Part shown: positions 3,770-35,630 of the stretch, piece by piece | Position numbering within the stretch: the stretch's first letter is position 1 | Layout of the letters: each line of letters opens with the position of its first letter | Sequence record: MZ234049.1 | Reading direction: 5' to 3' (one strand) | Length of the DNA stretch: 44,293 nt | Origin: Escherichia phage vB_EcoP-UTI89UKE2 | Program-made: the position numbers and the translations under genes | The notes under the pieces: generated by a model | Database searches by the model: none | What the model saw: only the letters and a program-made list of their open reading frames with translations | Told to the model about the DNA's origin: nothing

Positions 3770-3830
3770 AAGGAAGTAATAGGTATTAAAGGTTATATAG
3801 GTTATCTAGGAATACCTATTACCTTCTTCC
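3770..3830. repeat. AT-rich block with four AGGT motifs at 9-bp spacing inside an inverted repeat (TAATAGGTATT / AATACCTATTA)
   Basis: AGG at about 3780, 3789, 3798 and 3807; flanking arms are reverse complements. Confidence 0.6.
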
Positions 3831-3868
3831 TTCCTCTTATTACCACTTAGAGGAAGGGCAGACCTAGG

Positions 3869-3914
3869 TTGTCTCACATGTGAGACTTCGTATTTACCGG
3901 ACAGTATAGATAAG
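3869..3914 (+). promoter_or_regulatory. second palindrome GTCTCACATGTGAGAC abutting a second variant promoter-like sequence (TATTTACCGGACAGTATAGATAAG)
   Basis: Palindrome at 3871-3886; the promoter-like sequence differs from consensus in the core (CAGTATAGA vs CACTATAGA), so activity is uncertain. Confidence 0.4.
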
Positions 3915-3940
3915 ATTAACTCACTTTTGGAGATTTAACC

Positions 3941-4069
3941 ATGCGTAACTTTGAGAAGATGGCCCGTAAAGCTAACCGTTTTGACATGGAAGAAGGGCAG
4001 AAGAAAGGCAAGAAGCTGAATAAACCTGTTCGTGACCGTGCATCTAAACGCGCTGCGTGGGAGTTCTAA
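3941..4069 (+). CDS. small basic protein (42 aa)
   Basis: ATG at 3941, in-frame TAA at 4067-4069; sits in the short gap before the primase gene. Absent from the ORF track because it is under 60 aa. Confidence 0.4.
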   Translation: MRNFEKMARKANRFDMEEGQKKGKKLNKPVRDRASKRAAWEF

Positions 4070-4072
4070 GTT

Positions 4073-6061
4073 ATGGCTATTATTCAGAATGTACCGTGTC
4101 CTGCCTGTCAAAAGAATGGACATGATATTACTGGCAACCATCTTATGATATTTGAGGATGGCGCTGGTTACTGTAACCGTGGTCACTTCCATGATAACGG
4201 CAAGCCTTATTACCATAAGCCAGAGGGTGGCATCGAGATAACCGAATTACCTATTACTGGCAATATCAAATATACACCTTCTCAGTTTAAAGAGATGGAG
4301 AAGGAAGGGAAGATTAGCGACCCTAAGCTACGCGCCATCGCACTTGGTGGTATGCGTATGAAAGACCGTTGGGAGGTCATGAATGAGCAAGAAAGGGCAG
4401 AACAAGAAGCAGAGTGGAAACTTGATGTTGAATGGTTCCTCACGCTTAAGCGTAAGAATCTTGTTTCCCGACACATTCGCGGCGACATTTGCGCATTGTA
4501 CGATGTACGTGTCGGACACGATGAAGATGGTAGAGTCTCACGGCATTACTATCCACGCTTCGAGAAAGGTGAGCTAGTAGGCGCTAAGTGTCGCACATTA
4601 CCTAAAGACTTTAAGTTTGGTCATTTAGGTAAACTCTTTGGTATGCAAGATCTTTTCGGTATGAATACTTTGTCTCACGTGTTAGACAAGGGAAGACGAA
4701 AGGATTGCTTGCTTATTGTGGGCGGCGAACTGGATGCACTAGCAGCACAGCAAATGCTCCTTGATTCTGCCAAGGGTACTAAGTGGGAAGGCCAGCCTTA
4801 CCATGTATGGTCTGTCAATAAAGGTGAGTCTTGCCTTGAAGAGATAGTACAGAACCGTGAACACATCGCCCAATTTAAGAAGATTATATGGGGTTTTGAT
4901 GGAGATGAGGTAGGGCAGAAGCAGAATCAGCAAGCGGCTCGCCTGTTTCCTGGCAAATCCTATATCCTTGAATACCCTTCTGGTTGCAAAGATGCTAACA
5001 AGGCATTGATGGCTGGCAAGGCTAAAGAGTTTGTTGATGCTTGGTTTAATGCCAAGTCATCTGATGAAGTCTTTGGTAGCCAGATTAAATCTATCGCATC
5101 TCAAAGGGATAAGCTCAAGGCTGCACGTCCAGAGCAAGGGCTATCATGGCCTTGGCCTAAGCTGAACAAGGTAACGCTAGGTATTCGTAAGAACCAGCTT
5201 ATCATTGTAGGTGCAGGTTCTGGTGTAGGTAAGACTGAGTTCCTCCGCGAAGTGGTTAAACATCTCATTGAAGAACACGGTGAATCTGTAGGCATCATTT
5301 CTACAGAAGACCCAATGGTCAAGGTGTCCCGTGCTTTTATCGGCAAGTGGATTGATAAGCGTATTGAGTTACCGCCAACCAACGACCCGAAAGAAGACGG
5401 ATACCGTGAGGTGTTCGACTACACCGAGGAAGAAGCTAACGCTGCCATTGATTATGTAGCTGATACAGGAAAGCTATTTGTGGCTGACCTAGAAGGCGAT
5501 TATTCTATGGAGAAGGTAGAGCAAACTTGCCTAGAGTTTGAGGCTATGGGCATTTCTAATATCATCATTGATAACTTAACGGGGATTAAATTAGATGAGC
5601 GTGCTTTTGGTGGGAAGGTTGGTGCACTTGATGAATGCGTCAAACGAATTGGTACTATCAAAGACCGACATGCGGTTACGATTTTCCTTGTCTCTCACCT
5701 TACACGTCCTCCGGCAAACCGTACCCAACACGAAGAAGGTGGCGAAGTTATCCTTTCTGACTTCCGAGGCTCAGGCGCTATCGGATTCTGGGCATCTTAC
5801 GCCTTGGGGATTGAGCGTAATACAAGAGCTGAAACGCTTGATGAAAGGACTACCACGTACATCTCGTGTGTCAAAGACCGCGATCAAGGTATCTACACTG
5901 GAACCAAGGTCATGCTTAAAGGTGACATTCAGACCGGACGTTTGATGGAACCACAAGCCCGTACTAAGTCATTTGATACAGGTGAAGCAAGGCAGCAAGA
6001 GGTGCCTGATTTACCGGACACTATAGAAGAGACAAACTTTGAAGATGAACAGGAGTTTTAA
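4073..6061 (+). CDS. DNA primase/helicase (T7 gp4-like)
   Basis: N-terminal Cys4 zinc ribbon (CPACQKNGHD...YCNRGH), Walker A GAGSGVGKTEF, and a C-terminal acidic tail ending FEDEQEF as in T7 gp4. Confidence 0.93.
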   Translation: MAIIQNVPCPACQKNGHDITGNHLMIFEDGAGYCNRGHFHDNGKPYYHKPEGGIEITELPITGNIKYTPSQFKEMEKEGKISDPKLRAIALGGMRMKDRWEVMNEQERAEQEAEWKLDVEWFLTLKRKNLVSRHIRGDICALYDVRVGHDEDGRVSRHYYPRFEKGELVGAKCRTLPKDFKFGHLGKLFGMQDLFGMNTLSHVLDKGRRKDCLLIVGGELDALAAQQMLLDSAKGTKWEGQPYHVWSVNKGESCLEEIVQNREHIAQFKKIIWGFDGDEVGQKQNQQAARLFPGKSYILEYPSGCKDANKALMAGKAKEFVDAWFNAKSSDEVFGSQIKSIASQRDKLKAARPEQGLSWPWPKLNKVTLGIRKNQLIIVGAGSGVGKTEFLREVVKHLIEEHGESVGIISTEDPMVKVSRAFIGKWIDKRIELPPTNDPKEDGYREVFDYTEEEANAAIDYVADTGKLFVADLEGDYSMEKVEQTCLEFEAMGISNIIIDNLTGIKLDERAFGGKVGALDECVKRIGTIKDRHAVTIFLVSHLTRPPANRTQHEEGGEVILSDFRGSGAIGFWASYALGIERNTRAETLDERTTTYISCVKDRDQGIYTGTKVMLKGDIQTGRLMEPQARTKSFDTGEARQQEVPDLPDTIEETNFEDEQEF

Positions 6062-6222
6062 TGGAAATTATTAAACCAGTATTGAATATCGGTATTGAGA
6101 TCCTATTCATGCTTGTGATCGCAGATTATGCTGCACGATATGGATTCAAGAAAGCGGTGAAACTTATCGTTGCATCTGGTTTTCTTATGTCAATGTTCTT
6201 TATTGTAACACGCCTTATCTAG
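6061..6222 (+). CDS. small hydrophobic protein (53 aa)
   Basis: ATG overlaps the primase stop (TAATG); one predicted transmembrane helix; TAG at 6220-6222. Confidence 0.4.
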   Translation: MEIIKPVLNIGIEILFMLVIADYAARYGFKKAVKLIVASGFLMSMFFIVTRLI

Positions 6223-6233
6223 TGTATTTATCA

Positions 6234-6267
6234 GGGCTTGTCTCACATGTGAGACAGGCTCTTATTA
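6234..6267 (+). terminator. palindrome hairpin (core TGTCTCACATGTGAGACA, 6239-6256) with GC clamp and U-rich tail
   Basis: 18-bp perfect palindrome extended by GGCT/AGGC and followed by TCTTATT. Confidence 0.45.
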
Positions 6268-6294
6268 AGTACATTAAATAACTGGAGATTGATT

Positions 6295-6978
6295 ATGTAT
6301 AAATTAGTATTGAATGCAGGTGATTATGTTCGTAACATCAATGCAACCTCACGTAGATATCGTTGCCGTGGTACTGTGACTAATGTAAGTGAAAACAGCT
6401 ACTATGTAGAGTACAGTAATGGTATTAGACAGGCTTATCAAAAGGAATCAGCACATAACTACCTTGAGAAGATTGGAGAGGTAAGCAATCAATGTAAGTG
6501 CGTACACGATGAGATTTGCGATAAGTGTGCCCGCCAGATGCATAAAATGCTATTATACCCTCTTCGCTATGGTGCTGGCATTCAAACCTTATCAGAGGCA
6601 TATGGCAAAGGTAAGACTACACTTAATAAAGATCGCCGCAATGTAATCACTGGTAAGACTCAAAGTGAAATGATTAAGCAATGTGGCACTGCACTAGGTG
6701 TTACGCAGTTTAACACTCGTGCTCTTGGTAAATCCACAGGACAAGCTATGGTGAAGATTGGTGAAGCCATGATGCACCCAAATGTACCTGTGCGAATCAT
6801 GGATGTTGACCATGCAATCACAGAACACGGTACACCACGACGTGTAGCTAATAAGCATTTTGCCGACACTATAGAAGGTATTATCCGTAAGCAAGGGTTG
6901 AAAGGTCTTCACCTCTTGAATGGTGAAGAATTACTGTATCTCCCTATTGTTACTGAAGAAACCTACGTGAATATTTAA
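6295..6978 (+). CDS. hypothetical protein (227 aa) with Cys cluster CKCVHDEICDKC
   Basis: ORF with RBS GGAG at 6284-6287 and ATG at 6295. The track start at 6289 is a TTG extension. Confidence 0.7.
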   Translation: MYKLVLNAGDYVRNINATSRRYRCRGTVTNVSENSYYVEYSNGIRQAYQKESAHNYLEKIGEVSNQCKCVHDEICDKCARQMHKMLLYPLRYGAGIQTLSEAYGKGKTTLNKDRRNVITGKTQSEMIKQCGTALGVTQFNTRALGKSTGQAMVKIGEAMMHPNVPVRIMDVDHAITEHGTPRRVANKHFADTIEGIIRKQGLKGLHLLNGEELLYLPIVTEETYVNI

Positions 6979-6988
6979 GGAGTTAATC

Positions 6989-7075
6989 ATGACTAAAGTT
7001 CTAATTTATAAACAACGAGGTCTTAAGGCTTATGCTATTGTAGCACCAAATGGTGTTAAAAAAAGTAAGTTGTAA
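6989..7075 (+). CDS. small ORF (28 aa)
   Basis: AGGAG RBS then ATG at 6989; TAA at 7073-7075. Confidence 0.25.
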   Translation: MTKVLIYKQRGLKAYAIVAPNGVKKSKL

Positions 7076-7100
7076 GCCTCTTGCAATAAAAGGTGCAGGT

Positions 7101-7205
7101 ATGTCTGCTAACTTACAATTGCAACTTTTTGGCAATTTCACAGAAGCGCAATTCCGCAATAAACATGAAGTTATTGGTTCTTTTATGGTGAAACATGCAG
7201 AATAA
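7101..7205 (+). CDS. small ORF (34 aa)
   Basis: AGGTG RBS at 7091-7095, ATG at 7101, TAA at 7203-7205. Confidence 0.25.
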   Translation: MSANLQLQLFGNFTEAQFRNKHEVIGSFMVKHAE

Positions 7206-7404
7206 ACACAGCCTTAAGATGTTTGATGGTCACGAAGACCTGCAAGCACACATCACTAACCAAGCCTTCCTGTTTGCACAGTTAACTATGGCTGAAGCAA
7301 AGAAGAATAGTCTGACACGTGAGCAGGTTATCAAGGAGGCAACTTGGGAGCCACACCAAGGCAAATACATGGGCCAGAGATTAACTGTAACACGCAGTCG
7401 ATAA
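7195..7404 (+). CDS. hypothetical protein (69 aa; alternative start 7219)
   Basis: ORF ending just before a palindrome hairpin; start ambiguous. Confidence 0.45.
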   Translation: MQNKHSLKMFDGHEDLQAHITNQAFLFAQLTMAEAKKNSLTREQVIKEATWEPHQGKYMGQRLTVTRSR

Positions 7405-7410
7405 GTAAAG

Positions 7411-7440
7411 GGTTGTCTCACACATGAGACAGCCTTTCAT
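7411..7440 (+). terminator. palindrome hairpin variant TGTCTCA-CACA-TGAGACA with GC clamp and U-rich tail
   Basis: Arms TGTCTCA/TGAGACA at 7414-7431, flanked by GG/CC and followed by TTTCAT. Confidence 0.4.
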
Positions 7441-7461
7441 CATATTGATTGGAGGTGCATT

Positions 7462-7569
7462 ATGTCACGTGATTATGATTCTGATTGGGACTACTATGAC
7501 TCAATGAATCCAAAACCTGAACATTCAGATGATTATTATTGGGTGGAGGAAATGTATGAAGACTGTTGA
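7462..7569 (+). CDS. small acidic, aromatic-rich protein (35 aa)
   Basis: RBS GGAGG at 7451-7455, ATG at 7462; ends 14 nt inside the DNA polymerase gene. Confidence 0.35.
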   Translation: MSRDYDSDWDYYDSMNPKPEHSDDYYWVEEMYEDC

Positions 7570-10102
7570 TTGGAAGAAGGAGGCAGAAGGCCGTATCCTC
7601 GTGATGGATGCGGAAGCTAAAGGACTCCTTGACGCTATCCGCTATGGTCATCGTGAAGATGTGCATATCATTTGCTGCATGGACTTGCTTACTACCGAGG
7701 AGTTTCTCTTCTTTGACCCGTATGAGATGCGTGACCCTGAAGCAAGAGAACACCTGAAGGAATGGGAAGGTCATCAAGATGGTGACTTGGTTGATGGTGT
7801 TAACTTCCTGAAGCACTGTGAAGCTATTGTGTCGCAGAACTTCCTAGGGTACGACGGCCTTCTATTTGAGAAAGCATTCCCTGATATCTGGAAAGGCTTT
7901 AACTATACCGAGAGACGCGGCAAGGGCAGACTCCGCGCTGACCTGTGTCCTGTACGCGTCATGGATACGCTGGTCATGAGTCGCCTGTTAAACCCCGATA
8001 GACGCCTCCCTCCGCAAGCATACGCCAAAGGCATGGGTAACGTCGCCCCTCACTCAATTGAGGCGCACGGCATCCGTATAGGCCGTTATAAGCCGGAGAA
8101 CGAGGATTGGTCTAAGCTAACTGACCACATGGTTCACCGTGTACGGGAGGACGTGGCGATAGGCCGTGACTTGTTCCTCTGGCTCTTTAACGGGGAATGG
8201 ATGGAGCACAAACGCCGTGGCGTGAATAAACGCACTGGCCTAGGTATTGAGACAGCCTTCCACATGGAGTCCATTGTGGCGCTGGAGATGAGCCGTCAGG
8301 CCGAGCGTGGATTCCGTCTGGATATAGATAAAGCATTAGCACGATGCGAGGAATTGGACGCTAAGATTGATGAGACAGTCGCAGCGTTCCGTCCGCACAT
8401 GCCTATGCGTATCAAGTCTAAACCTTTTAAACCGGAAGAAAAGAATGAAGTATGCCAACGCGCAAATGAGTATGGAGCTAGCAACAATATACCTACTGTC
8501 CTTGACCCCTCTCACTTTCTTCACGCAGAGAGACGAGGAGATCGCAAGACAGTATGGAGTGTCACTACTAAGTCTGGTGATTGGTCGGCTAGCGTCAAGA
8601 AAGACTTTCCTCACCTTAGAGGAAACCGTAATGACACGCCAAGCATCAAGTGGATTGGCGCTTACTCGCCTGTTACTTTCGAAGAGATTCCCTTGGGTAA
8701 CAGGGATACAGTTAAGCAAGTGCTCTATGATTATGGATGGAAAGGTGTTGAATTTAACGATACCGAGCAAGCGCATCTCGATGAGCATGGCGTATTACCC
8801 AAGCCTTGGAGTGGGAAGATAAATGAAAAGTCCCTTACTTTATGGCAAGAGAGAGCCGCACGTGAAGGTAAAACAGTCCCTGATTGGTGCTTGGGTATCG
8901 CTGCATGGTACATACTCGTATCCCGTCGTGGTCAGATCCTCAACCGTGGTGACGTTGAAGCCTTCGACCAGAAGGGGGTATGGCCTTCGCAAGCTGGTAT
9001 ACGAAAGTGTCGCGGCCTTGTACCTGTAGCATTTAACAAGGAGTTAGGAATCAATGCGCAGCAATACTACGAAAGGTACGGATGCTGGCCTACGTCAGAC
9101 AAGGATGACGGAGAATGGCGTGTGCCAGCTATTGCTATTAGTATTGGAACTTCTACGTTCCGTATGCGTCATCGTAACGTGGTTAATATTCCTGCCCGTG
9201 GTTTGTATCCTTTACGTGATTTATTCATAGCCGGTAAAGGTAAGCTAATCCTTGGTTGTGATGGTGCTGGTCTTGAACTACGTGTACTGTCTCACTTCAT
9301 GAATGACCCTGAATATCAAGATATTGTACTGCATGGTGACATTCACACCCATAATCAAATGAAGGCTGGTCTTCCTAAGCGTGACATGGCGAAGACATTT
9401 ATATATGCCTTCCTATATGGATCTGGTATAGCTAACCTTGCAGCAGTATGTGGTGTTACTGAGGAAGAAATGGAGGAAGTTGTGGCAAGATTTGAGGTTG
9501 AACTACCATCTCTTGCACGCCTTCGTGAGAATGTTATCGCACAAGGTAACAAGTTTGGCTACCTACAAGCACCTGATGGTCATTGGGGTCGCATCCGTAT
9601 GTCTGGTGGTGAACTTAAAGAGCACACTATGCTTAACGTACTACTCCAGATGACTGGTTCTCTGTGTATGAAATACGCATTGGTCAGAGCGTTTGCAGTG
9701 ATGCGCAAGGAAGGTGTGGCCTTAGATAGCATGGGAAACCCTTGCGGTATAGCTAACGTGCACGATGAAATCCAGATGGAAGTCCCTGAAGATGAGGTCT
9801 TGTATCTCAACTATGACTTGCCTTTCACCTTAGAAGGGTTCGAAACAGAGAAGGCTGCTGTGAAAGCAGTGTTCGATGCAGAGGAGAAACGTGTTCATGT
9901 GGATTCTGAAGGACGTATGTGGTCTGCTGCAAATCTCGTTAGCGTTGATGCTGATGCTGGTGTACTTCATTGCCAGCGTCGTTATCACCGTGCAGGGCAT
10001 ATCATTGCCGATGCAATGACTTGGGCTGGTCATTATTTGAAGATGCGTTGTCCGATGGCAGGTGAGTATAAGATTGGTGCAAGCTGGAAGGAAACACACT
10101 GA
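7556..10102 (+). CDS. DNA polymerase (family A, T7 gp5-like, with 3'-5' exonuclease domain)
   Basis: Motifs VMDAEAKGL (exo), GCDGAGLELRVLSHF (motif A), KTFIYAFLYGSG (motif B) and NVHDEIQMEV (motif C). RBS GGAGG at 7546-7550. The track start at 7529 is a non-ATG extension. Confidence 0.93.
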   Translation: MKTVDWKKEAEGRILVMDAEAKGLLDAIRYGHREDVHIICCMDLLTTEEFLFFDPYEMRDPEAREHLKEWEGHQDGDLVDGVNFLKHCEAIVSQNFLGYDGLLFEKAFPDIWKGFNYTERRGKGRLRADLCPVRVMDTLVMSRLLNPDRRLPPQAYAKGMGNVAPHSIEAHGIRIGRYKPENEDWSKLTDHMVHRVREDVAIGRDLFLWLFNGEWMEHKRRGVNKRTGLGIETAFHMESIVALEMSRQAERGFRLDIDKALARCEELDAKIDETVAAFRPHMPMRIKSKPFKPEEKNEVCQRANEYGASNNIPTVLDPSHFLHAERRGDRKTVWSVTTKSGDWSASVKKDFPHLRGNRNDTPSIKWIGAYSPVTFEEIPLGNRDTVKQVLYDYGWKGVEFNDTEQAHLDEHGVLPKPWSGKINEKSLTLWQERAAREGKTVPDWCLGIAAWYILVSRRGQILNRGDVEAFDQKGVWPSQAGIRKCRGLVPVAFNKELGINAQQYYERYGCWPTSDKDDGEWRVPAIAISIGTSTFRMRHRNVVNIPARGLYPLRDLFIAGKGKLILGCDGAGLELRVLSHFMNDPEYQDIVLHGDIHTHNQMKAGLPKRDMAKTFIYAFLYGSGIANLAAVCGVTEEEMEEVVARFEVELPSLARLRENVIAQGNKFGYLQAPDGHWGRIRMSGGELKEHTMLNVLLQMTGSLCMKYALVRAFAVMRKEGVALDSMGNPCGIANVHDEIQMEVPEDEVLYLNYDLPFTLEGFETEKAAVKAVFDAEEKRVHVDSEGRMWSAANLVSVDADAGVLHCQRRYHRAGHIIADAMTWAGHYLKMRCPMAGEYKIGASWKETH

Positions 10103-10218
10103 TGGACAGGTTTGATGTTGTTTGCCTATTCTCTATCTTCTTTCTTATATTCCTTATGCTTGCTTGCTATGGAAGTATGCGATTAGATATACCTGATGAA
10201 GAGGAGGGTTACGATTGA
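10102..10218 (+). CDS. small hydrophobic peptide (38 aa) ending EEEGYD
   Basis: ATG overlaps the DNAP stop (TGATG); one hydrophobic segment. Confidence 0.3.
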   Translation: MDRFDVVCLFSIFFLIFLMLACYGSMRLDIPDEEEGYD

Positions 10219-10316
10219 TGCAAACTGCTTTTATCATTCTTGGGATCATATTATTTATGGTAGTATTCTGGGCTTTCTCTGGCATTGACCCAGATTGTGA
10301 TGGTAACTACGATTGA
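10218..10316 (+). CDS. small hydrophobic peptide (32 aa) ending DCDGNYD
   Basis: ATG overlaps the preceding stop; same architecture as the previous peptide. Confidence 0.3.
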   Translation: MQTAFIILGIILFMVVFWAFSGIDPDCDGNYD

Positions 10317-10384
10317 GTTATACTCAAGGTCACTTACGAGTGGCCTTTATGAATAACTTATTCCTACTTATTTTGTCTAACATG

Positions 10385-10406
10385 ATTTACTGGACACTAT
10401 AGAAGG
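10385..10406 (+). promoter_or_regulatory. phage RNAP promoter (ATTTACTGGACACTATAGAAGG)
   Basis: Exact match to the consensus recurring in this genome; SP6-type core CACTATAGAAG. Confidence 0.8.
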
Positions 10407-10460
10407 AAAGCCTAGGTAATCTAGGTTTATAAGGTAGTATAGGTAATTAAGTAAATATAG
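10405..10460. repeat. phased (T)AGGT repeat array downstream of a promoter
   Basis: TAGGT/AAGGT/TAGGA motifs at about 9-bp spacing (CCTAGGTAATCTAGGTTTATAAGGTAGTATAGGTAA...). Confidence 0.6.
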
Positions 10461-10471
10461 GAGATATAAAT

Positions 10472-10849
10472 ATGTCTATGGTAACTACTCTGGTATTCGT
10501 GGCTCAATACTTTCGTGGTCTTGCTAATAAGTTCAAGTCCAAGGCTATCAAAGCTATTGAGGCTCGCATCGAAGCAGTACAGGCAGAGCAAGTTAAAGTT
10601 GAAGAACATCGTAGTTCTCAAATGATTGACTGTCATAACCGCTACTATGCATCTCGTGATGCACTAAATGCACGTCAAGTCAAAGAGGTAGAAGATATGC
10701 TGGCACGTCACCAGCAAGAGCGTGACAGCCTGAAAGCTGAATTTGAAGAGAACAAGGCATCAATTGCTCTTGTAAATCAAGCTGCATCTGACAGCCTGAA
10801 GAAAGAGATTGTTATGCTGGAAATAGAACTGGACAACTTGACTAAATAA
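10472..10849 (+). CDS. hypothetical protein (125 aa), predicted coiled coil
   Basis: RBS AGGAG then ATG at 10472; charged heptad-like sequence. Confidence 0.65.
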   Translation: MSMVTTLVFVAQYFRGLANKFKSKAIKAIEARIEAVQAEQVKVEEHRSSQMIDCHNRYYASRDALNARQVKEVEDMLARHQQERDSLKAEFEENKASIALVNQAASDSLKKEIVMLEIELDNLTK

Positions 10850-10855
10850 GGAGTT

Positions 10856-11155
10856 ATGATGGAAGAAGTGATTCAAGCTAAACATGTAGGTATCATCTTT
10901 CGTGATCTAGAGCAGCGTAAAGTTGCAGGTCACACTCGTCTGGCTAAAGAAGACGATACAGCAATCACTACTGTGGAACAAGCAGATGCCTATCGTGGGC
11001 CAGAGTTCACTCAAGGTGAAACTTGTCACCAATTGAGCCTTTCACTTTGTGATACTATGGCTAGTGTAAATGTACAAGAGGTTGAAGATGGTGAATGTGT
11101 TAGCTATGTCTACCCTCTCGACACTATTGCACGTATTAAGGTAGTTCATAAGTAA
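10856..11155 (+). CDS. hypothetical protein (99 aa; start may be ATG 10859)
   Basis: RBS AAGGAG at 10848-10853; tandem ATGs. Confidence 0.6.
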   Translation: MMEEVIQAKHVGIIFRDLEQRKVAGHTRLAKEDDTAITTVEQADAYRGPEFTQGETCHQLSLSLCDTMASVNVQEVEDGECVSYVYPLDTIARIKVVHK

Positions 11156-11176
11156 TTACTGGACACTATAGAACAA
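11153..11176 (+). promoter_or_regulatory. phage RNAP promoter (TAATTACTGGACACTATAGAACAA)
   Basis: Consensus core; overlaps the stop of the upstream ORF. Confidence 0.75.
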
Positions 11177-11226
11177 TAGGTCGGCTTAGTTCGGCCTATG
11201 ATTGTAAAGTGTTGAACCGCCTTTTG

Positions 11227-11257
11227 TGCATCTTGCACAACCCGATACTATATCGGG
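11227..11257 (+). promoter_or_regulatory. 5' leader stem-loops (GTGCATCTTGCAC and CCCGATACTATATCGGG)
   Basis: Two adjacent perfect hairpins between the promoter and the 268-aa gene; candidate RNase III site or mRNA stabiliser. Confidence 0.4.
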
Positions 11258-11319
11258 CTTTCTAGTGAGTACATGCTTGTGCTCAGTACAAAGCTAACTG
11301 ACAATAGGAGACTAAATAA

Positions 11320-12126: not shown

Positions 12127-12135
12127 GGAGGGCGG

Positions 12136-12354
12136 ATGAAAGTACAAATTGTAACTCTGCATTGCAAGAAAGGCATCACCACGCTTGGCGGTGGCACTTT
12201 CCACTCCTTCTCCGAAGGAGACACATACTCTGACCTGCACTACATCTGGCGCGATGGGCAGCACGTGGTGAACTATAGTGACCCGGCTACGGGGAAGCGC
12301 CACGGCGTATCGCTTCCGGCGCATGACATTGCTCAGGTGAACACAGTTTTATAA
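12136..12354 (+). CDS. hypothetical protein (72 aa)
   Basis: RBS AGGAGGG then ATG at 12136. Confidence 0.5.
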   Translation: MKVQIVTLHCKKGITTLGGGTFHSFSEGDTYSDLHYIWRDGQHVVNYSDPATGKRHGVSLPAHDIAQVNTVL

Positions 12355-12355
12355 A

Positions 12356-12371
12356 GTCTCACGTGTGAGAC
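12356..12371. promoter_or_regulatory. palindrome variant GTCTCAC-GT-GTGAGAC
   Basis: Same arms as the other palindrome copies; sits between a gene end and a promoter. Confidence 0.5.
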
Positions 12372-12386
12372 AAATCGGTGTCCGGT

Positions 12387-12409
12387 ATTTACTGGACACT
12401 ATAGAAGAG
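12387..12409 (+). promoter_or_regulatory. phage RNAP promoter (ATTTACTGGACACTATAGAAGAG)
   Basis: Exact consensus. Confidence 0.8.
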
Positions 12410-12459
12410 AAGAATTTTAATCGGCGATAATGCCATAACCAACAAAAGGAGAATTTAAT

Positions 12460-12924: not shown

Positions 12925-12948
12925 GTAATAGTTATTGGAGAATGAATT

Positions 12949-15560: not shown

Positions 15561-15600
15561 TTGACACTATAGAACAAAGGGTAGGTATTAGCTTACCCTT
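15555..15600 (+). promoter_or_regulatory. phage RNAP promoter (ATTTAGTTGACACTATAGAAC) followed by a leader hairpin (AAGGGTA-loop-TACCCTT)
   Basis: Promoter variant closest to the classical SP6 consensus ATTTAGGTGACACTATAGAAG; the hairpin begins at +1. Confidence 0.7.
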
Positions 15601-15628
15601 GATTGTATAGTGAATGGAGGAATTAATT

Positions 15629-28798: not shown

Positions 28799-28810
28799 TA
28801 CCTAACTCAA

Positions 28811-28840
28811 GGCTTGTCTCACATGTGAGACAGGTCTTTA
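28811..28840 (+). terminator. palindrome hairpin (core TGTCTCACATGTGAGACA, 28815-28832) with GC clamp and U-rich tail
   Basis: Same 18-bp palindrome as at 6239, between two internal virion protein genes. Confidence 0.45.
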
Positions 28841-28862
28841 TGATAGGCACTATGGAGGAATT

Positions 28863-31800
28863 ATGGAACAAGACATTAAGACTAATTGGGCTGGATATGT
28901 CCAGTCTACTCCTGAGCCGTTTTCTATTGAGGCGGCTCCGGTATCGGCTCCTACGATACGCCAGCGTAATGAGTTACAAGAGCAAGTTCTTGAAGCTAAA
29001 GCTGACGCTGATATTTTAGGTGCTGTAGGTGCTGCCTTCCAGAATGAGTGGTTGGCATTCGGAGGCAAGCGGTGGTATGACCGTGCCACTGCTGATTTCA
29101 CACCTCAACCAGACTTTGAGATACAACCTGAGCAACGTGAAGCACTACGTTTCAAATATGGTACGGATATGATGCAGACAATCACTGAGGGTGTTCGTTC
29201 TGAGGATGAATTGAACTTCCGTATTCAGAATGCTGATGAAGACCTTGAGCGCAATAAGCGCATTGCTCAGGCTGGCTGGGTTGGCTCTGTGGCGACGATT
29301 GGCGCTGCTGTGCTTGACCCTGTGGGATGGGTTGCCTCTATTCCAACCGGTGGTGCCGCTAAAGTTGGACTCGTAGGACGTGCTGTGCGTGGCGCTATCG
29401 CCGCTGGCGTGAGTAATGCCGCTATTGAATCCGTATTGGTCCAAGGTGACATGACTCGTGATTTAGATGACATTATGGTAGCACTAGGTTCCGGTATGGC
29501 GATGGGTGGCGTTATTGGCGCTGTAGCGCGTGGTAGGGCCACTAAGCTCAGTGAGCAAGGGGATGACAGGGCTGCGAGCATTGTGCGCAGTGCAGACGCA
29601 GGGGACCGCTATGTGCGTGCTGTTGCTGATGATAGTATCGGTGCGATGCGTGTTAAGGGTGAAGAGGTACTCACGGAGGGTGCATTTGATGTCTCTAGCA
29701 AAGGTGAAGATTTGCTGAAAACCCTACAGCGGGAAGGTAATGCAATTGATATGACCCCTCGCCGCTGGGCCGGAACTCTGTCTGCCCTTGGTACTGTCGT
29801 ACATTCCTCTCAGGATGCAAGTGTACGCGGCCTTGGTGCTCGCCTGTTTGAGTCCCCCCAAGGCTTAGGTATGCAGAAGGCATCTGCTAGTCTCATGCAG
29901 AATACTAACTTGAACCGTCTGAAATCTGCTGATATGAATCGTTTCAACGATGGGTTCGATTTATGGCTCAAAGAGAATAATATCAACCCGGTTGCAGGTC
30001 ATACTAACTCTCACTATGTGCAGCAATATAATGAGAAGGTATGGGAAGCTGTACGCATCGGTATGGACGAGTCTACGCCTAAGTCTATCCGTATGGCAGC
30101 AGAGGGGCAGCAAGCTATGTATCGTGAAGCATTAGCATTACGTCAACGCTCTGGTGAAGCTGGGTTTGAAAAGGTTAAAGCAGATGATAAGTACATGCCT
30201 GATATTTTTGACAGTATGAAGGCTCGTCGTCAATTCAGTATGCACGATAAAGAGGACATCATTGAGTTATTCTCTCGTGCATACCAGAATGGTTCTCGTA
30301 AGGTTCCAAAGGAAGTGGCTGATGATATTGCACGAGCACAAGTAAACCGCGTTGCTGATGCCACCTTGACCGGACAGCTTAGCTTTGAAAAGGCTATGTC
30401 TGGTCAAACCAAAGCAGAATATGAAGCACTCATGCGCAAAGCAGGCTTTAGTGATGAAGAGATTGAAAAGATGGTAGAAGCTCTGGATAATAAAGAAACC
30501 AGAGATAATATCTCTAACCGAGCTAAGATGAGTTTAGGCTTAGATGTTACTCAAGAGTACAATGGTATTCGTATGCGTGACTTTATGAACACTAACGTGG
30601 AAGAGTTAACAGATAACTACATGAAGGAAGCGGCAGGTGGTGCTGCCTTGGCTCGTCAAGGTTTCTCTACCTATCAGGCTGCACTTAATGCAATTGATCT
30701 TGTAGAGCGAAATGCACGAAATGCAGCTAAAGATACAAAAGCACACGCACAATTTGAAGCGGAGTCGGCTAAGATCCGTCAATCAGAGCCTGATTACAAG
30801 AAGGCACAAGAGAAGATTGAAGAGTTAAAGAAGCGACTTAAATTGAAAGAGAAAGATGAAGCAGCAGGTCTGGCTATTGATGAAGAAATCCGTCAGATGC
30901 GAGAGGGGCTTCGCTTGATTATGGGTAAATCTATCGATTCAAACCCACAAGATTTGTCTACTAAAATGCTGCGTCGTGGGCGTGACATTACAGGCGTACT
31001 TCGCTTAGGTCAGATGGGCTTCGCACAGCTAGGTGAACTTGCTAACTTCATGGGTGAGTTTGGTATTGCTGCCACCACTATGGCTTTAGGTAAGCAATTC
31101 CGCTTCACCTCTAAGGCGTTGCGTAATGGCGATGGCTTCTTTCGAGATAAGAATTTAGCTGAGGTTGAGCGAATGGTAGGTTACATTGGTGAAGACAACT
31201 GGCTAACAACTAAGGGTGCGCGTCCAGATGAGTTTGGTGATGTAACCACAGTGCGAGGTATGATGGCCCATTTTGACCAGTCCATGAACTCTATACGACG
31301 TGCTCAGACAAACCTATCCCTCTTCCGCATGGCACAGGGTTCTCTGGAGCGAATGACCAATAGGCAAATAGCTTTGTCTTTCATTGACCACCTTGAAGGC
31401 AAGAAGATTATCCCTCAGAAGAAACTGGAGGAACTTGGTCTTACTCAGGGGTTCATGACTAACCTACAGAAGCACTATGATGCTAACTCTAAAGGTTCTG
31501 GCTTGCTTGGCTTTGATACAATGCCTTATGCCATGGGTGAAACTTTAGCTAATGCTATTCGTCGTAAGTCAGGTCTAATTATCCAACGTAACTTCATTGG
31601 TGATGAAGGTATCTGGATGAACAAAGCACTAGGTAAGACATTTGCACAGCTTAAGTCATTCTCTCTTGTATCTGGTGAGAAGCAATTTGGTCGAGGGATT
31701 CGACACGATAAAATTGGTCTTGCTAAGAAGACAGCTTACGGGTTTGCTTTGGGTTCAATAGTGTATGCGGCAAAAGCCTATGTGAACTCTATTGGGCGAG

Positions 31801-32171
31801 AAGACCAAGATGAATATTTGGAAGAGAAGTTATCGCCTAAAGGGTTGGCCTTTGGTGCAATGGGTATGATGAGTACAACTGCTGTATTTAGTCTAGGTGG
31901 AGATTTCTTAGGTGGCCTAGGTGTTCTACCTTCTGAGTTAGTACAATCCCGTTATGAGGCTGGCTTTCAGACTAAGGGTTTGATAGACCAAATACCACTA
32001 GTAGGTGTTGGTCAAGATGCATATCGTTTAGCAGATTCTATAACTAAATATGCAGAGGGTGATACAGAAGGTGTAGATGTGGCACGTAGGGCTTTACGCT
32101 TAGTGCCTCTAACTAATGTAATAGGAATCCAGAACGCATTGCGTTATGGCTTAGATGAACTGGAGGATTGA
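28863..32171 (+). CDS. large internal virion protein (1102 aa; gp16-like core/ejection protein)
   Basis: RBS GGAGG; size and position. Confidence 0.8.
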   Translation: MEQDIKTNWAGYVQSTPEPFSIEAAPVSAPTIRQRNELQEQVLEAKADADILGAVGAAFQNEWLAFGGKRWYDRATADFTPQPDFEIQPEQREALRFKYGTDMMQTITEGVRSEDELNFRIQNADEDLERNKRIAQAGWVGSVATIGAAVLDPVGWVASIPTGGAAKVGLVGRAVRGAIAAGVSNAAIESVLVQGDMTRDLDDIMVALGSGMAMGGVIGAVARGRATKLSEQGDDRAASIVRSADAGDRYVRAVADDSIGAMRVKGEEVLTEGAFDVSSKGEDLLKTLQREGNAIDMTPRRWAGTLSALGTVVHSSQDASVRGLGARLFESPQGLGMQKASASLMQNTNLNRLKSADMNRFNDGFDLWLKENNINPVAGHTNSHYVQQYNEKVWEAVRIGMDESTPKSIRMAAEGQQAMYREALALRQRSGEAGFEKVKADDKYMPDIFDSMKARRQFSMHDKEDIIELFSRAYQNGSRKVPKEVADDIARAQVNRVADATLTGQLSFEKAMSGQTKAEYEALMRKAGFSDEEIEKMVEALDNKETRDNISNRAKMSLGLDVTQEYNGIRMRDFMNTNVEELTDNYMKEAAGGAALARQGFSTYQAALNAIDLVERNARNAAKDTKAHAQFEAESAKIRQSEPDYKKAQEKIEELKKRLKLKEKDEAAGLAIDEEIRQMREGLRLIMGKSIDSNPQDLSTKMLRRGRDITGVLRLGQMGFAQLGELANFMGEFGIAATTMALGKQFRFTSKALRNGDGFFRDKNLAEVERMVGYIGEDNWLTTKGARPDEFGDVTTVRGMMAHFDQSMNSIRRAQTNLSLFRMAQGSLERMTNRQIALSFIDHLEGKKIIPQKKLEELGLTQGFMTNLQKHYDANSKGSGLLGFDTMPYAMGETLANAIRRKSGLIIQRNFIGDEGIWMNKALGKTFAQLKSFSLVSGEKQFGRGIRHDKIGLAKKTAYGFALGSIVYAAKAYVNSIGREDQDEYLEEKLSPKGLAFGAMGMMSTTAVFSLGGDFLGGLGVLPSELVQSRYEAGFQTKGLIDQIPLVGVGQDAYRLADSITKYAEGDTEGVDVARRALRLVPLTNVIGIQNALRYGLDELED

Positions 32172-33133
32172 TGAGTTATACTTTCACAGAACATATAGCC
32201 AACGGTACGCAAGTAACCTATCCCTTTAGATTTGCTGGCAGGGATAAAGGCTATCTTCGTGCCTCAGATGTGATAGTGGAATCTCTTCAAGGTAACACTT
32301 GGATTGAGGTTACATCTGGCTGGCAATTAACTGGTACGCATCAAATCACTTTTGATGTAGCACCTGTTGCAGGTTTGAAGTTCCGTATTCGAAGGGAAGT
32401 ACAAAAGGAGTATCCATACGCTGAGTTTGACCGTGGTGTTACCTTGGATATGAAGTCTTTAAATGGTTCTTTCATTCATATACTGGAGATTACACAGGAG
32501 TTACTTGATGGGTTTTATCCAGAAGGATACTTCATTAAGCAGAATGTAAGCTGGGGCGGCAATAAGATTACTGACCTAGCTGATGGTGAGAATCCAAAAG
32601 ATGCAGTAAATAAGTCACAGCTAGATGCTATCGACAAGAAGCATACTGATTGGAACTCTGCACAAGATATAGAGATTGCTGGTATTAAGAGAGGAATGGT
32701 GTCTGGTGTATCTCATCGCACTATTCCTTGGTATATGGTCGCCTCCGGTGGAGAGCAAATCATTCGACCACCTTACTCATTTGATGATGCTATGGTGTTT
32801 ATAAACGGTGTATTCCAGCATGAACTAGCAGGTGCAGTATCAGTGGGGTATAATGTTATAACCCTGTCCGAGCCATTACAGGCTGGGGATGAAGTTTATG
32901 TGCTTATCGGTAGTCGCTTAACCCCACCTACAAGTGCGGATACTATCCTCTTTACACAAGCAGTGAGTGAAGGTACACAATCTATCGACATTGTAACGGC
33001 TTTCCAACGTCTTGATGTATACTTGGATGGCCTGTATCAACCTAATAATGCTTATGAAATCGTAGGGTCTACTATCACTTTCAGTGAGCCATTACCTGAG
33101 TGTGTCGTAAGTATGAAGCTACAACTAGTGTAA
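32171..33133 (+). CDS. tail fiber/tailspike adaptor protein (T7 gp17 N-terminal domain-like)
   Basis: N-terminal MSYTFTEHIANGTQVTYPFRF resembles the gp17 tail-attachment domain; no long fibre shaft. Confidence 0.7.
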   Translation: MSYTFTEHIANGTQVTYPFRFAGRDKGYLRASDVIVESLQGNTWIEVTSGWQLTGTHQITFDVAPVAGLKFRIRREVQKEYPYAEFDRGVTLDMKSLNGSFIHILEITQELLDGFYPEGYFIKQNVSWGGNKITDLADGENPKDAVNKSQLDAIDKKHTDWNSAQDIEIAGIKRGMVSGVSHRTIPWYMVASGGEQIIRPPYSFDDAMVFINGVFQHELAGAVSVGYNVITLSEPLQAGDEVYVLIGSRLTPPTSADTILFTQAVSEGTQSIDIVTAFQRLDVYLDGLYQPNNAYEIVGSTITFSEPLPECVVSMKLQLV

Positions 33134-33142
33134 GGAGGTGAG

Positions 33143-33337
33143 ATGATTAACTCCGAACTGGTAGATAGTGGTGTGAAGCTTGCGCCACCTGCATTAGTCT
33201 CAGGTGGGTACTTCCTCGGTATCAGTTGGGATAATTGGGTGTTAATAGCAACATTCATTTATACCGTGTTGCAAATTGGAGACTGGTTTTATACCAAGAT
33301 TAAACTATGGAGGAAGAATCGTGAGCGTCCACAATAA
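33143..33337 (+). CDS. putative holin (64 aa)
   Basis: RBS AAGGAGG; hydrophobic segment plus charged C-terminus KLWRKNRERPQ; position equivalent to T7 gp17.5. Confidence 0.55.
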   Translation: MINSELVDSGVKLAPPALVSGGYFLGISWDNWVLIATFIYTVLQIGDWFYTKIKLWRKNRERPQ

Positions 33338-33620
33338 ACATGCAGCTACGGAAGATGAGGTTGGCATCCTGCATGGTGCTATTACCAAAATCTTTAATAA
33401 GAAAGCACAGGCAATACTGGACACTATAGAAGAAGACCCAGATGCAGCACTGCATTTAGTCTCTGGTAAAGACATTGGAGCTATGTGTAAGTGGGTTCTT
33501 GATAATGGTATTACCGCTACACCTGCTGCACAGCAGGAGGAGTCCAAGCTATCTAAGCGCCTCAAGGCTATCCGAGAGGCATCAAGTGGCAAGATTATTC
33601 AATTCACTAAGGAGGATTGA
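33321..33620 (+). CDS. terminase small subunit (gp18-like); GTG start after RBS GGAGG
   Basis: Immediately upstream of, and overlapping, the large terminase gene. Confidence 0.5.
   Translation: MSVHNKHAATEDEVGILHGAITKIFNKKAQAILDTIEEDPDAALHLVSGKDIGAMCKWVLDNGITATPAAQQEESKLSKRLKAIREASSGKIIQFTKED
33413..33435 (+). promoter_or_regulatory. phage promoter-like sequence (AATACTGGACACTATAGAAGAAG) inside the small terminase gene
   Basis: One mismatch to the consensus, embedded in coding sequence (encodes ILDTIEED). Confidence 0.55.
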
Positions 33621-35518
33621 TGGCTAAGGCAAGAGAATCACAAGCGGAGGCTCTTGCCAGATGGGAGATGCTACAGGAGTTACAGCAGACCTTTCCTTAC
33701 ACAGCGGAAGGTTTGCTTCTCTTTGCAGATACAGTTATTCATAACTTAATTGCAGGCAACCCTCATCTGATTCGTATGCAGGCGGATATCTTGAAGTTCC
33801 TATTTTACGGACACAAGTACCGCCTCATCGAAGCGCCTCGTGGTATCGCTAAGACAACACTATCAGCAATCTATACGGTATTCCGTATTATTCATGAACC
33901 ACATAAGCGTATCATGGTTGTGTCCCAAAACGCCAAGCGAGCAGAGGAAATCGCAGGTTGGGTAGTTAAAATCTTCCGTGGCTTAGACTTTCTTGAGTTT
34001 ATGCTGCCGGATATCTACGCTGGGGACCGTGCATCCGTTAAGGCGTTTGAGATTCATTACACCCTACGTGGTAGTGATAAGTCTCCTTCTGTATCCTGTT
34101 ACTCAATCGAAGCAGGTATGCAGGGTGCTCGTGCTGATATTATTCTAGCGGATGACGTAGAGTCGATGCAGAATGCTCGTACGGCAGCGGGCCGTGCCTT
34201 GCTTGAGGAACTGACTAAGGAGTTTGAATCTATCAACCAGTTTGGGGATATCATTTACCTTGGTACACCTCAGAACGTAAACTCTATCTACAACAACCTG
34301 CCTGCTCGTGGTTACTCTGTTCGTATCTGGACTGCGCGTTACCCTTCAGTAGAGCAAGAGCAATGTTATGGCGACTTCCTTGCACCTATGATTGTTCAAG
34401 ATATGAAGGACAACCCAGCACTTCGCTCAGGGTACGGGTTGGATGGTAATAGTGGTGCACCTTGTGCCCCTGAAATGTATGATGATGAAGTCCTGATTGA
34501 GAAGGAAATCTCTCAGGGTGCTGCTAAGTTCCAGCTTCAGTTCATGCTTAACACTCGCATGATGGATGCTGACAGATACCCATTACGCCTGAACAATCTA
34601 ATCTTCACCTCGTTTGGTACAGAGGAAGTCCCTGTGATGCCTACGTGGAGTAATGATTCCATAAACATCATTGGTGATGCACCTAAGTATGGTAACAAGC
34701 CTACGGATTTCATGTACAGACCTGTAGCTCGCCCATACGAATGGGGTGCTGTCTCCCGCAAGATTATGTATATTGACCCTGCGGGTGGTGGTAAGAACGG
34801 AGATGAGACGGGTGTAGCCATCGTATTCCTGCACGGCACATTCATTTATGTGTATCAGTGCTTTGGTGTACCTGGCGGATACCGAGAGTCGTCCCTGAAT
34901 CGCATTGTGCAGGCCGCAAAGCAGGCGGGTGTTAAAGAGGTATTCATTGAGAAGAACTTTGGTCATGGCGCGTTTGAGGCGGTAATTAAGCCGTACTTTG
35001 AACGAGAGTGGCCTGTAACTCTGGAAGAGGATTACGCCACCGGACAGAAAGAGTTGCGTATCATTGAGACGCTGGAGCCGCTCATGGCAGCCCATAGGCT
35101 TATCTTCAATGCAGAGATGGTGAAGTCAGACTTTGAGTCGGTACAGCACTATCCGCTTGAACTACGCATGTCCTACAGTCTTTTCAATCAAATGTCGAAC
35201 ATAACGATTGAGAAGAACAGCCTCCGGCACGATGACCGCCTAGACGCCCTGTATGGCGCTATACGGCAATTAACTTCTCAGATAGACTATGACGAGGTTA
35301 CACGGATTAATCGCCTCAGAGCGCAGGAGATGCGCGATTACATCCATGCTATGAATACACCTCATCTACGCAGGGCAATGCTATATGGAGATTACGGTAC
35401 TGAGCGAAGAGTGACCAACACTTCCGTAGCGATGCAGCAGCGAGTTTACGGGCAGAACTACCGAAATAAATCGGCAAGCAGAAATACACTTTCTGCAAGG
35501 ATTTCAAGGACTTATTAA
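33620..35518 (+). CDS. terminase large subunit (gp19-like)
   Basis: Walker A-like RGIAKTT ... ILADDVE (Walker B) and C-terminal nuclease region. The track start at 33617 is a TTG. Confidence 0.9.
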   Translation: MAKARESQAEALARWEMLQELQQTFPYTAEGLLLFADTVIHNLIAGNPHLIRMQADILKFLFYGHKYRLIEAPRGIAKTTLSAIYTVFRIIHEPHKRIMVVSQNAKRAEEIAGWVVKIFRGLDFLEFMLPDIYAGDRASVKAFEIHYTLRGSDKSPSVSCYSIEAGMQGARADIILADDVESMQNARTAAGRALLEELTKEFESINQFGDIIYLGTPQNVNSIYNNLPARGYSVRIWTARYPSVEQEQCYGDFLAPMIVQDMKDNPALRSGYGLDGNSGAPCAPEMYDDEVLIEKEISQGAAKFQLQFMLNTRMMDADRYPLRLNNLIFTSFGTEEVPVMPTWSNDSINIIGDAPKYGNKPTDFMYRPVARPYEWGAVSRKIMYIDPAGGGKNGDETGVAIVFLHGTFIYVYQCFGVPGGYRESSLNRIVQAAKQAGVKEVFIEKNFGHGAFEAVIKPYFEREWPVTLEEDYATGQKELRIIETLEPLMAAHRLIFNAEMVKSDFESVQHYPLELRMSYSLFNQMSNITIEKNSLRHDDRLDALYGAIRQLTSQIDYDEVTRINRLRAQEMRDYIHAMNTPHLRRAMLYGDYGTERRVTNTSVAMQQRVYGQNYRNKSASRNTLSARISRTY

Positions 35519-35538
35519 TTACTGGACACTATAGAAGG
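35517..35538 (+). promoter_or_regulatory. phage RNAP promoter (AATTACTGGACACTATAGAAGG)
   Basis: Consensus; starts immediately after the terminase stop. Confidence 0.8.
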
Positions 35539-35544
35539 AAGGCC

Positions 35545-35630
35545 CGGATAATAAGATAAATAATAGGTAATATATAGGTTAACCTAGGTTATATAGGTAT
35601 GCATTAGTATGGGTGTACTCCTGTACACCC
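35545..35630. repeat. phased TAGGT repeat array (4 copies, 9-11 bp spacing) followed by leader hairpin GGGTGTAC-TCCT-GTACACCC
   Basis: AATAGGTAATATATAGGTTAACCTAGGTTATATAGGTATG, then a perfect 8-bp stem at 35611-35630. Confidence 0.6.

Follow-up and report, generated by a model that had tools for sequence, protein, structure and literature searches.

Short repeated words in non-coding DNA are familiar from phage T7, in which the SRL and SRR elements consist of CCTAAAG heptamers placed next to the terminal repeat at irregular 10-13 nt steps, with an unclear function. At the RNA level, the phage T4 gene 32 mRNA operator joins a structured 5' element to an unstructured leader of UUAAA repeats, which is coated cooperatively by the single-strand-binding protein (SSB). 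The closest described systems to the elements reported here are the replication origins of T7: the phi1.1A/phi1.1B region is the primary origin and phiOR a secondary origin (PMC8373140), and the T7 origin is described with a 61-bp A/T-rich cluster, within which a primase site is reportedly unused for priming (PMC12839067). In this study, we analyzed a window of 44,293 bases from Escherichia phage vB_EcoP-UTI89UKE2 (sequence record MZ234049.1), which is the complete genome of a K1E/K1-5/SP6-type coliphage (Vectrevirus, Molineuxvirinae). Three AT-rich arrays of a short word, TAGG(T/A), repeated at steps of mostly 9-10 nt, lie immediately downstream of phage promoters in this genome. These arrays are probably origin or leader modules of undescribed design, and our preferred reading, to which we assign a probability of about 0.4, is that each is the segment near the promoter where a T7-type transcription-dependent origin would unwind and be primed, and that it bears a periodic lattice that would be read on single strands. 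To our knowledge, the replication origins of SP6/K1E-type phages have not been mapped; a literature search returned no description of the arrays or of an SP6-like origin, although a passing mention in the original SP6, K1-5, and K1E genome papers is possible.

The credible genes of the window are all on the + strand, as are its ten phage-polymerase promoters, located by searching for GGACA(C/G)TATAG. Relative to K1E, the record is a circular permutation, with the true ends of the genome lying near 41.2 kb. Transcription starts inferred from the promoter sequence at 3725, 10402, and 35534 place the beginnings of the three arrays, which are likewise on the + strand, at +3 to +38. Array 1 (3752-3812) follows the first of two tandem promoters (ATTTACCGGACACTATAGGAT; 3708-3728, + strand) downstream of the RNA polymerase gene, and is made up of AGGG at 3752, AGGA at 3762 and 3771, AGGT at 3781, 3790, and 3799, and AGGA at 3808, with spacings of 10, 9, 10, 9, 9, and 9 nt; it has one C in 61 nt and is 72% purine. 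Array 2 (10404-10462) begins at its promoter (10385-10405, + strand) with AGGA at 10404, continues with AGGT at 10414, 10423, 10432, and 10441 and a degenerate AGTA at 10450, and ends in AGGAG at 10459. Every step is 9-10 nt, and the last unit is the true Shine-Dalgarno (SD) sequence of a 125-aa gene starting at 10472. Array 3 (35536-35599) is preceded by a promoter (35517-35537, + strand) that overlaps the stop codon of the large terminase gene, and comprises AGGA at 35536 followed by TAGGT at 35565, 35576, 35586, and 35595, the latter spaced by 11, 10, and 9 nt; the gap at 35546-35556 is filled by additional AGGA units in relatives.

Chains of at least four AGG[TA] words at 8-11 nt steps occur at only three places in the whole window, 3762-3808, 10404-10441, and 35565-35595 (six, five, and four units, respectively), and none is found on its minus strand. 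One hundred first-order Markov genomes yielded 0.02 such chains each, the longest having four units (2 of 100 genomes). Chance clustering does not explain the periodic chains; non-periodic AGGT clusters can arise by chance, as in coding DNA at 5168-5226. The original prediction, made by reading the sequence, that the arrays are non-random and linked to promoters is borne out by these simulations and by the promoter that precedes each array. It had also given each array 4-5 copies of TAGGT or AAGGT; in array 1, the strict (T/A)AGGT form occurs only three times. Non-coding DNA makes up 8.2% of the genome and holds 20 of the 77 copies of TAGGT (p = 3e-6). It also holds 8 of the 13 copies of CCTAGG (p = 2e-6), at 3863, 10411, 35583, 40963, 41035, 41241, 41288, and 43437; the enrichment of CCTAGG had been pointed out before, with two of its four coordinates ∼10 nt off. 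Between 40.9 and 41.8 kb, the dominant repeat is CTTAGT(G) rather than CCTAGG, and belongs to a different family. A scan for sigma-70 promoters found none within the arrays.

Duplex stability was calculated from nearest-neighbor energies in windows of 40, 50, 60, 80, and 100 bp. At 40, 60, 80, and 100 bp, no other duplex in the 44-kb genome is as unstable as the three arrays, which fill the top three ranks of instability; at 50 bp, array 1 drops to fourth and the other two are first and second. Array 2 is the least stable at the first four sizes and a near-tie second at 50 bp, and array 3 ranks first to third at all five. In T7, which served as a positive control, the four least stable windows lie just downstream of phiOL, phi1.1B, phi6.5, and phiOR, a set that takes in the known origins. 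Arrays 1 and 2 also combine low C with positive GC skew on the non-template strand, placing them in the top 0.01-0.2% of windows, and both are genome extremes for these properties in SP6 as well; such a non-template composition is generally associated with persistent RNA:DNA hybrids.

The genomic position of two of the arrays matches that of T7 origins. The tandem promoters flank array 1, which comes directly after the RNA polymerase gene and ahead of a homolog of T7 gp1.1, a 42-aa open reading frame (ORF) at 3941-4069 on the + strand (BLASTP, 54% identity, E = 6e-12; PHROG 2490). Based on this homolog, the array 1 segment is syntenic with phi1.1A-R1.1-phi1.1B of T7: the first promoter matches phi1.1A in position, and the second (ATTTACCGGACAGTATAGATA; 3892-3912, + strand) is the positional analog of phi1.1B. 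What follows array 1 is a second promoter, not a gene, so no coding role is evident for the array 1 transcript. The promoter of array 3, at the end of the large terminase gene, is the positional analog of phiOR. Three features of T7-type origins are present, namely a promoter directed into the element, a segment of ∼60 bp that is easily unwound, and the tandem-promoter layout of the primary origin. No array accompanies the major capsid promoter, which is presumably one of the most active late promoters and whose leader is a plain hairpin, indicating that the arrays are not simply a mark of high expression.

From the observed anatomy, statistics, conservation, synteny, and duplex instability, we infer a candidate origin role, in which array 1 would serve as the primary origin and arrays 2 and 3 as secondary origins. 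In the proposed mechanism, the phage RNA polymerase would initiate at the adjoining promoter, transcribe through a small 5' hairpin, and next traverse the 60-nt AT-rich stretch, which is almost free of C on the non-template strand in this subfamily. The duplex would open most easily at the array, so that the nascent RNA could become available as a primer for the phage DNA polymerase. Spaced one per 9-10 nt, the TAGG(T/A) words would act as a lattice, carried by either the nascent RNA or the displaced + strand, and the putative reader of this lattice would be an oligomeric replication protein, e.g., the ring-shaped primase-helicase encoded at 4073-6061 or an SSB, in keeping with the 5-8 units per array.

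As in T7, a phage promoter stands immediately upstream, the segments are the least stable duplex of the genome, arrays 1 and 3 occupy the genome positions of origins, and an RNA hairpin lies between the tandem promoters. The design differs from that of T7 in its periodic word, its conserved hairpin, and the conservation of three sites across subfamilies, where the T7 segments have only scattered CTTAAG-like words; moreover, it is the second promoter that precedes the A/T-rich part in T7, compared with the first here. A primase site is present in the T7 segment (PMC12839067), whereas arrays 1 and 2 have no 5'-GCA-3', the recognition site of the SP6 primase (PMC2034472). Finally, the T7 segments are known origins, while the arrays of SP6-like phages are candidates.

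Several observations weigh against an origin function. Neither GCA nor TGC occurs in arrays 1 and 2, and the only TGCA is at the 3' edge of array 3 (∼35600). As arrays 1 and 2 lack the SP6 primase site, the units do not act as priming sites; given that the in-cluster site of T7 is reportedly unused, a primase site in the segment may not be essential. No replication data for any SP6-like phage were found in the searchable literature, the GC and AT skew profiles have no usable inflection, and T7 origins lack a comparable periodic word, leaving the periodicity unexplained by T7 precedent. In the Proteus phage, whose genome is more AT-rich, the arrays are not the top unstable windows, although adjacent segments rank fifth and seventh. 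AU-rich unstructured 5' leaders would also score as unstable, and the ranking therefore cannot separate a role in DNA from one in RNA. The arrays of Aeromonas phage MJG are not purine-rich, so an R-loop-favoring composition is not universal. In addition, the covarying flanking hairpins and the in-phase run of array 2 into an SD sequence reflect selection at the RNA level.

Loss of the arrays or of their phasing in close relatives had been proposed as a test of the original prediction; the arrays are present in K1E, K1-5, SP6, and beyond. K1E and K1-5 carry all three, nearly unchanged. In SP6 (∼75% identical overall), array 1 has six units, array 3 has seven, and array 2 is nearly identical to that of this phage (91% identity, versus ∼70-72% for arrays 1 and 3). 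In Proteus phage Pm5460, the RNA polymerase gene is followed by eight units and the terminase gene by up to seven, and arrays at both positions also occur in Pectobacterium phage PP1, the Klebsiella lineage (Kp7), and Erwinia phage phiEa100. The promoters diverge strongly among lineages (ATTTACYGGACACTATAG, ATTTAGGTGACACTATAG, TTAAAGACCACTATAG, TTAGGGCGGACTATAG, and TGTGGCGAGTATAG), and the array word stays constant as (A/C)T-AGG-(T/A)-A while the spacers diverge. Array 2 is confined to the SP6/K1E group: PP1 has the downstream gene but with a hairpin leader, and Pm5460 lacks the gene. Each array region was matched in 94-103 GenBank phage records (array 2 at 84-100% identity in its 103), and among the matches listed (∼100 records) the array regions carry no feature annotation. 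Several GenBank records place spurious small ORFs over the arrays.

The same arrangement is found in Aeromonas phage MJG (Colwellvirinae), whose promoter consensus is TAGGTTGCATAATAGA. In this phage, promoter-hairpin-array modules follow the RNA polymerase, DNA polymerase, and large terminase genes, the three positions of the window, and a pyrimidine tract follows at two of the sites. Its unit is TAGTAG at 9-10 nt steps, its three arrays are its three least stable windows, and two of its hairpins are CCGTCGGAGACGG, identical to the hairpin that the window has ahead of array 1. The leader at its capsid promoter is a plain hairpin. The occurrence of the modules in another subfamily with a TAGTAG unit implies that the module predates the subfamily and that its word can change. 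Pseudomonas phage uligo has a looser version of the module, and a scan of viral contigs with the hairpin as a 14-mer returned almost entirely chance matches (true relatives, 3 of 120). It is possible, though doubtful, that these loci represent a conserved Autographiviridae promoter-hairpin-lattice module, in which the sequence-conserved 5' hairpin CCGUCGGAGACGG would nucleate an oligomeric single-strand-binding machine on the 5-8 words. Candidate machines would be a hexameric or heptameric primase-helicase, loading on the displaced strand, and an RNA-binding ring from phage or host, loading on the transcript. Such a module would amount either to a helicase-loading pad coded in the sequence or to a new class of phage RNA that acts in cis. 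It would be held at three fixed genome positions in two or more subfamilies, its word (TAGGT or TAGTAG) co-evolving.

The spacing of the units bears on whether they are read in duplex DNA. Across 187 units from 34 non-redundant loci, steps of 9 nt (54) and 10 nt (74) predominate over steps of 8 (7) and 11 nt (7), with multiples where a unit has decayed. The mean step of 9.57 nt amounts to about -32 degrees per unit on 10.5-bp B-DNA, and the 9/9/9 runs of arrays 1 and 2 in the window leave the two end units of each array facing opposite sides. Among relatives, the unit-to-unit distance across one array 3 spacer is 9, 11, 15, or 29 nt. The one-turn, same-face phasing of the original prediction is therefore right as to a period near 10 but not as to register, as the mean is 9.57 nt, steps of 8-11 nt are mixed, and a spacer varies. 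Intrinsic curvature, its other suggestion, found no favor in a wedge-model calculation, which is a rough test: arrays 1 and 2 fall at the 90th-92nd genome percentile, with a mean curvature near that of the genome, and array 3 at the 98th. That phased words curve the DNA is extremely improbable; the percentile of array 3 and its low end-to-end ratio agree with curvature, but arrays 1 and 2 are ordinary, none of the three arrays has phased A-tracts or curvature far above background, and the period is off the helical repeat. Because of this period and the ordinary curvature of arrays 1 and 2, the same-face and curvature readings are both weak.

A duplex reading could also take the form of iteron-like sites for a cooperative protein (origin-binding, roadblock, or regulatory) just downstream of selected promoters, which was the principal suggestion of the original prediction. 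The direct repeats, with 4-8 units at a period near 10 bp, have the look of such sites, the core word is kept while the spacers diverge, and the unit differs between subfamilies (TAGGT versus TAGTAG), as expected with a co-evolving phage-encoded partner. However, iterons hold a fixed register of integral helical turns, and here the ∼32 degree drift per unit, the mixture of 8 to 11 nt steps inside single arrays, the opposite-facing end units of arrays 1 and 2, and the spacer of 9, 11, 15, or 29 nt depart from it. The word is also invariant in the Molineuxvirinae while the RNA polymerase promoters drift strongly, and no candidate cognate protein was identified; we regard this explanation as improbable. 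Cooperative binding of some factor is possible, and the flexible spacing, the strict strand asymmetry, and the covarying flanking hairpins point to reading on a single strand (RNA or displaced DNA) rather than on one face of the duplex. As a separate observation, the first and second TAGGT units of array 3 are separated by a (TA)n run (35569-35575) whose length varies among close relatives, K1-5 included, which looks like microsatellite-type slippage within the array.

At the RNA level, the array 1 transcript opens with the hairpin CCGTCGGAGACGG at +7 to +19 (3731-3743, + strand), the stem of which covaries in 12 relatives. In the window and these 12 relatives, the 5' units of array 1 pair with a downstream CCT-rich pyrimidine tract (3812-3857, + strand) to form a long, imperfect hairpin, with fold z-scores of -1 to -5.4 across the 13 sequences and a length of 25-35 bp in all relatives folded. 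In the window, this region includes a perfect 12-bp stem (3776-3787 with 3811-3822) and a second hairpin (3829-3837 with 3849-3857), and is followed by a terminator-like palindrome with a T-rich tail (GTCTCACATGTGAGAC; 3871-3886, + strand) ahead of the second promoter; array 1 may be released as a discrete RNA of ∼160 nt ending at this last hairpin. Indels break the alignment of the entire array 1 region, for which no consensus RNA structure was obtained, and only the 5' hairpin is supported. Behind array 3 is a GC hairpin, GGGTGTAC-TCCT-GTACACCC (35611-35630, + strand), with compensatory changes in 5 of 9 pairs among 10 relatives, and then a pyrimidine tract (CCTATTCCTTACTTCCTTAC; 35632-35651, + strand) for which pairing with the purine-rich start of the transcript is predicted in many relatives, and an SD sequence and ATG at 35666-35680. 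In several array 3 relatives, a predicted closing stem joins the transcript 5' end and the CCUU tract. Arrays 2 and 3 of the window fold no better than shuffled sequence (array 2, z = -0.55).

These structures are consistent with an RNA leader or non-coding RNA, consisting of the 5' hairpin, a C-poor UAGG(U/A) run, and a downstream CCU tract, that would bind multiple copies of a phage or host RNA-binding protein or set mRNA stability or processing. We consider such a role, the main rival of the origin reading, possible but somewhat unlikely on its own. In its favor, the arrays stand at fixed distances from the transcription start on the sense strand only, the flanking hairpins covary, the purine units of array 1 pair with the pyrimidine tract, and a terminator-like hairpin lies behind that array, while a closing stem forms in several relatives of array 3. 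Array 2 runs in 9-nt phase into a real SD sequence and is the best conserved of the three in SP6, and both the 8-11 nt steps and the (TA)n spacer expansions suit a single-stranded ligand. Conversely, Rfam 15 at gathering score gave no family match over the whole window (relaxed searches returned only chance-level hairpin matches), no candidate binding protein was identified, the genes behind the three arrays are functionally unrelated, arrays 2 and 3 of the window lack significant folds, and the synteny with T7 origins would be left unexplained. The leader and origin readings are compatible, because the T7 origin also contains an RNase III site.

The T4 gene 32 operator resembles array 2 in having a 5' structured element and an unstructured, C-poor repeat leader that reaches the ribosome-binding site. 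It differs in that the gene behind array 2 encodes no SSB, and in that the three arrays precede unrelated genes. The product of the array 2 gene is a small protein with a hydrophobic N-terminus and a coiled coil, and looks membrane-anchored; gene-32-like autoregulation of array 2 was dropped as a candidate for this reason. The probable SSB gene of this phage (11320-12126) has another leader. Its 268-aa product (PHROG 862) has an acidic tail (...EMDEDAEY) with a terminal aromatic residue, like the T7 gp2.5 SSB, and is a candidate SSB of SP6-like phages.

If the arrays were RNase III sites, array 1 and its CCT tract would be the counterpart of T7 R1.1, with the AGG and CCT words building a long, irregular duplex. 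Array 1 does hold the R1.1 position between tandem promoters, has the same AAGGU:ACCUU lower stem, folds as a hairpin of the roughly two-turn irregular kind in all relatives, and carries in its 3' arm the 10-mer ACCTTCTTCC, identical in the 3' arm of R1.1. Its hairpin is longer than R1.1, however, and the periodic units extend into the loop, where pairing is irrelevant; array 2 has neither a partner strand nor significant structure, and array 3 has only short closing stems, so that an R1.1-like duplex is confined to array 1. A much closer match to the T7 R-site consensus, CTCAAGGTCACTTACGAGTGGCCTTTATGA, lies elsewhere, at 10323-10352 just upstream of the array 2 promoter; it closely resembles the upper stem of R1.1 and is shared with SP6, K1E, and K1-5. 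We hold RNase III processing as the whole explanation of the arrays to be quite improbable.

It is also very improbable that the units are SD-like standby sites, or a CsrB-like sponge, acting in 30S recruitment or in titration of a protein that binds GGA, for example CsrA. Both forms of the unit, AGGU and AGGA, pair with the 16S anti-SD, each unit being a 4-nt sub-word of UAAGGAGGU, array 2 runs in phase into a true SD sequence, and CAGGAAG units occur in some relatives. Against this, U precedes 64% of units and A follows 68%, where a G would lengthen the anti-SD pairing, GGU predominates over GGA (AGGU makes up 70% of units), no start codon follows array 1, and the syntenic MJG arrays are UAGUAG, without GG.

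Other candidates were considered and set aside. SP6 promoters contain TAGGT, which raised the possibility of half-promoter decoys, but the K1E, Proteus, Pectobacterium, and Klebsiella phages, with promoters that lack TAGGT, keep their arrays. Units mimicking the TATAGG initiation region were rejected as the resemblance does not covary in Pseudomonas phage uligo. G-quadruplexes and GG-"staple" R-loops are weakened by the MJG arrays, which lack GG and are not rich in purines. For the window arrays, the hybrid-minus-duplex energy is favorable without being extreme (2.5th-7th percentile).

The arrays provide three precise origin candidates, and under the preferred origin reading they would add a periodic code and a conserved hairpin to the T7 paradigm of a promoter plus AT-rich DNA; neither is explained by any current model. 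Recruitment of the primase-helicase, or of another oligomer, by the lattice would reveal how a ring helicase that has no loader locates its origin, and action in RNA would make the lattice a new leader element of phages. Phages of the K1E/K1-5 type are used therapeutically, and the SP6 RNA polymerase is a laboratory enzyme. Genome engineering should leave the arrays intact.

A separate family of repeats occupies the genome end. At 41414 the window has ATCTGTT, which resembles a class II pause or termination signal, followed at 41469-41592 by two CTTAGGT and eight CTTAGT(G) words at 10-13 nt steps; 41414-41592 is the counterpart of the T7 concatemer-junction ATCTGTT and the SRL array of CCTAAAG. 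This arrangement is kept in K1E, SP6, and Pm5460, whereas PP1 has the array but reads ATCTGTC, and 18 of the 30 copies of CTTAGT are non-coding (p = 1e-12). The TAGGT arrays share with SRL and SRR the use of short repeated words in non-coding DNA of a T7-supergroup genome, but are promoter-proximal rather than at genome ends, use another word, and have a period of 9-10 rather than 10-13 nt. They are a family distinct from the end array, which opens with the two CTTAGGT words; a CCTTAGT closes array 3. In T7, a single AGGT occurs 13-19 nt after the starts of phi1.1A, phi1.1B, and phiOR (T7 5848-5945 and 39229-39260) and is absent after phi6.5, phi13, phi2.5, and phiOL; this word may be a remnant of the array module or a chance occurrence.

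The palindrome behind array 1 is one of six copies of a 16-bp sequence, GTCTCAC(A/G)(T/C)(G/A)TGAGAC (3690-3705, 3871-3886, 6240-6255, 7415-7430, 12356-12371, and 28816-28831), at least three of which (3690, 3871, and 12356) lie just upstream of a phage promoter and at least two of which have a T-rich tail. It is retained as GTCTCAC..GTGAGAC in the Erwinia, Aeromonas, and Pseudomonas relatives and replaced, with both arms altered, by GTCCAACGTGTTGGAC in SP6 and the Proteus and Pectobacterium relatives; it may act as a hairpin for termination or processing, or as an operator bound by a dimeric protein. The 15-mer GGGCAGACCTAGGTT is present in two identical copies, one before the palindrome upstream of the second promoter (3856-3870) and one at the right genome end near the terminal repeat (40956-40970). 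GenBank record MZ234050, from which the window differs by one A in a homopolymer run, does not annotate the gp1.1-like ORF, and annotates small ORFs over promoters or arrays at 3916-4011 (minus strand), 10314-10403, and 35614-35709, which are probably spurious. A second family of leaders, found at 15561-15628 and 11156-11200, consists of a promoter, a GC hairpin, and then GATTGTATAGTGAAT (or GATTGTAAAGTG). This leader type is also present in PP1 and Pm5460, and its recurrence suggests that the phage promoters carry few modular leader types.

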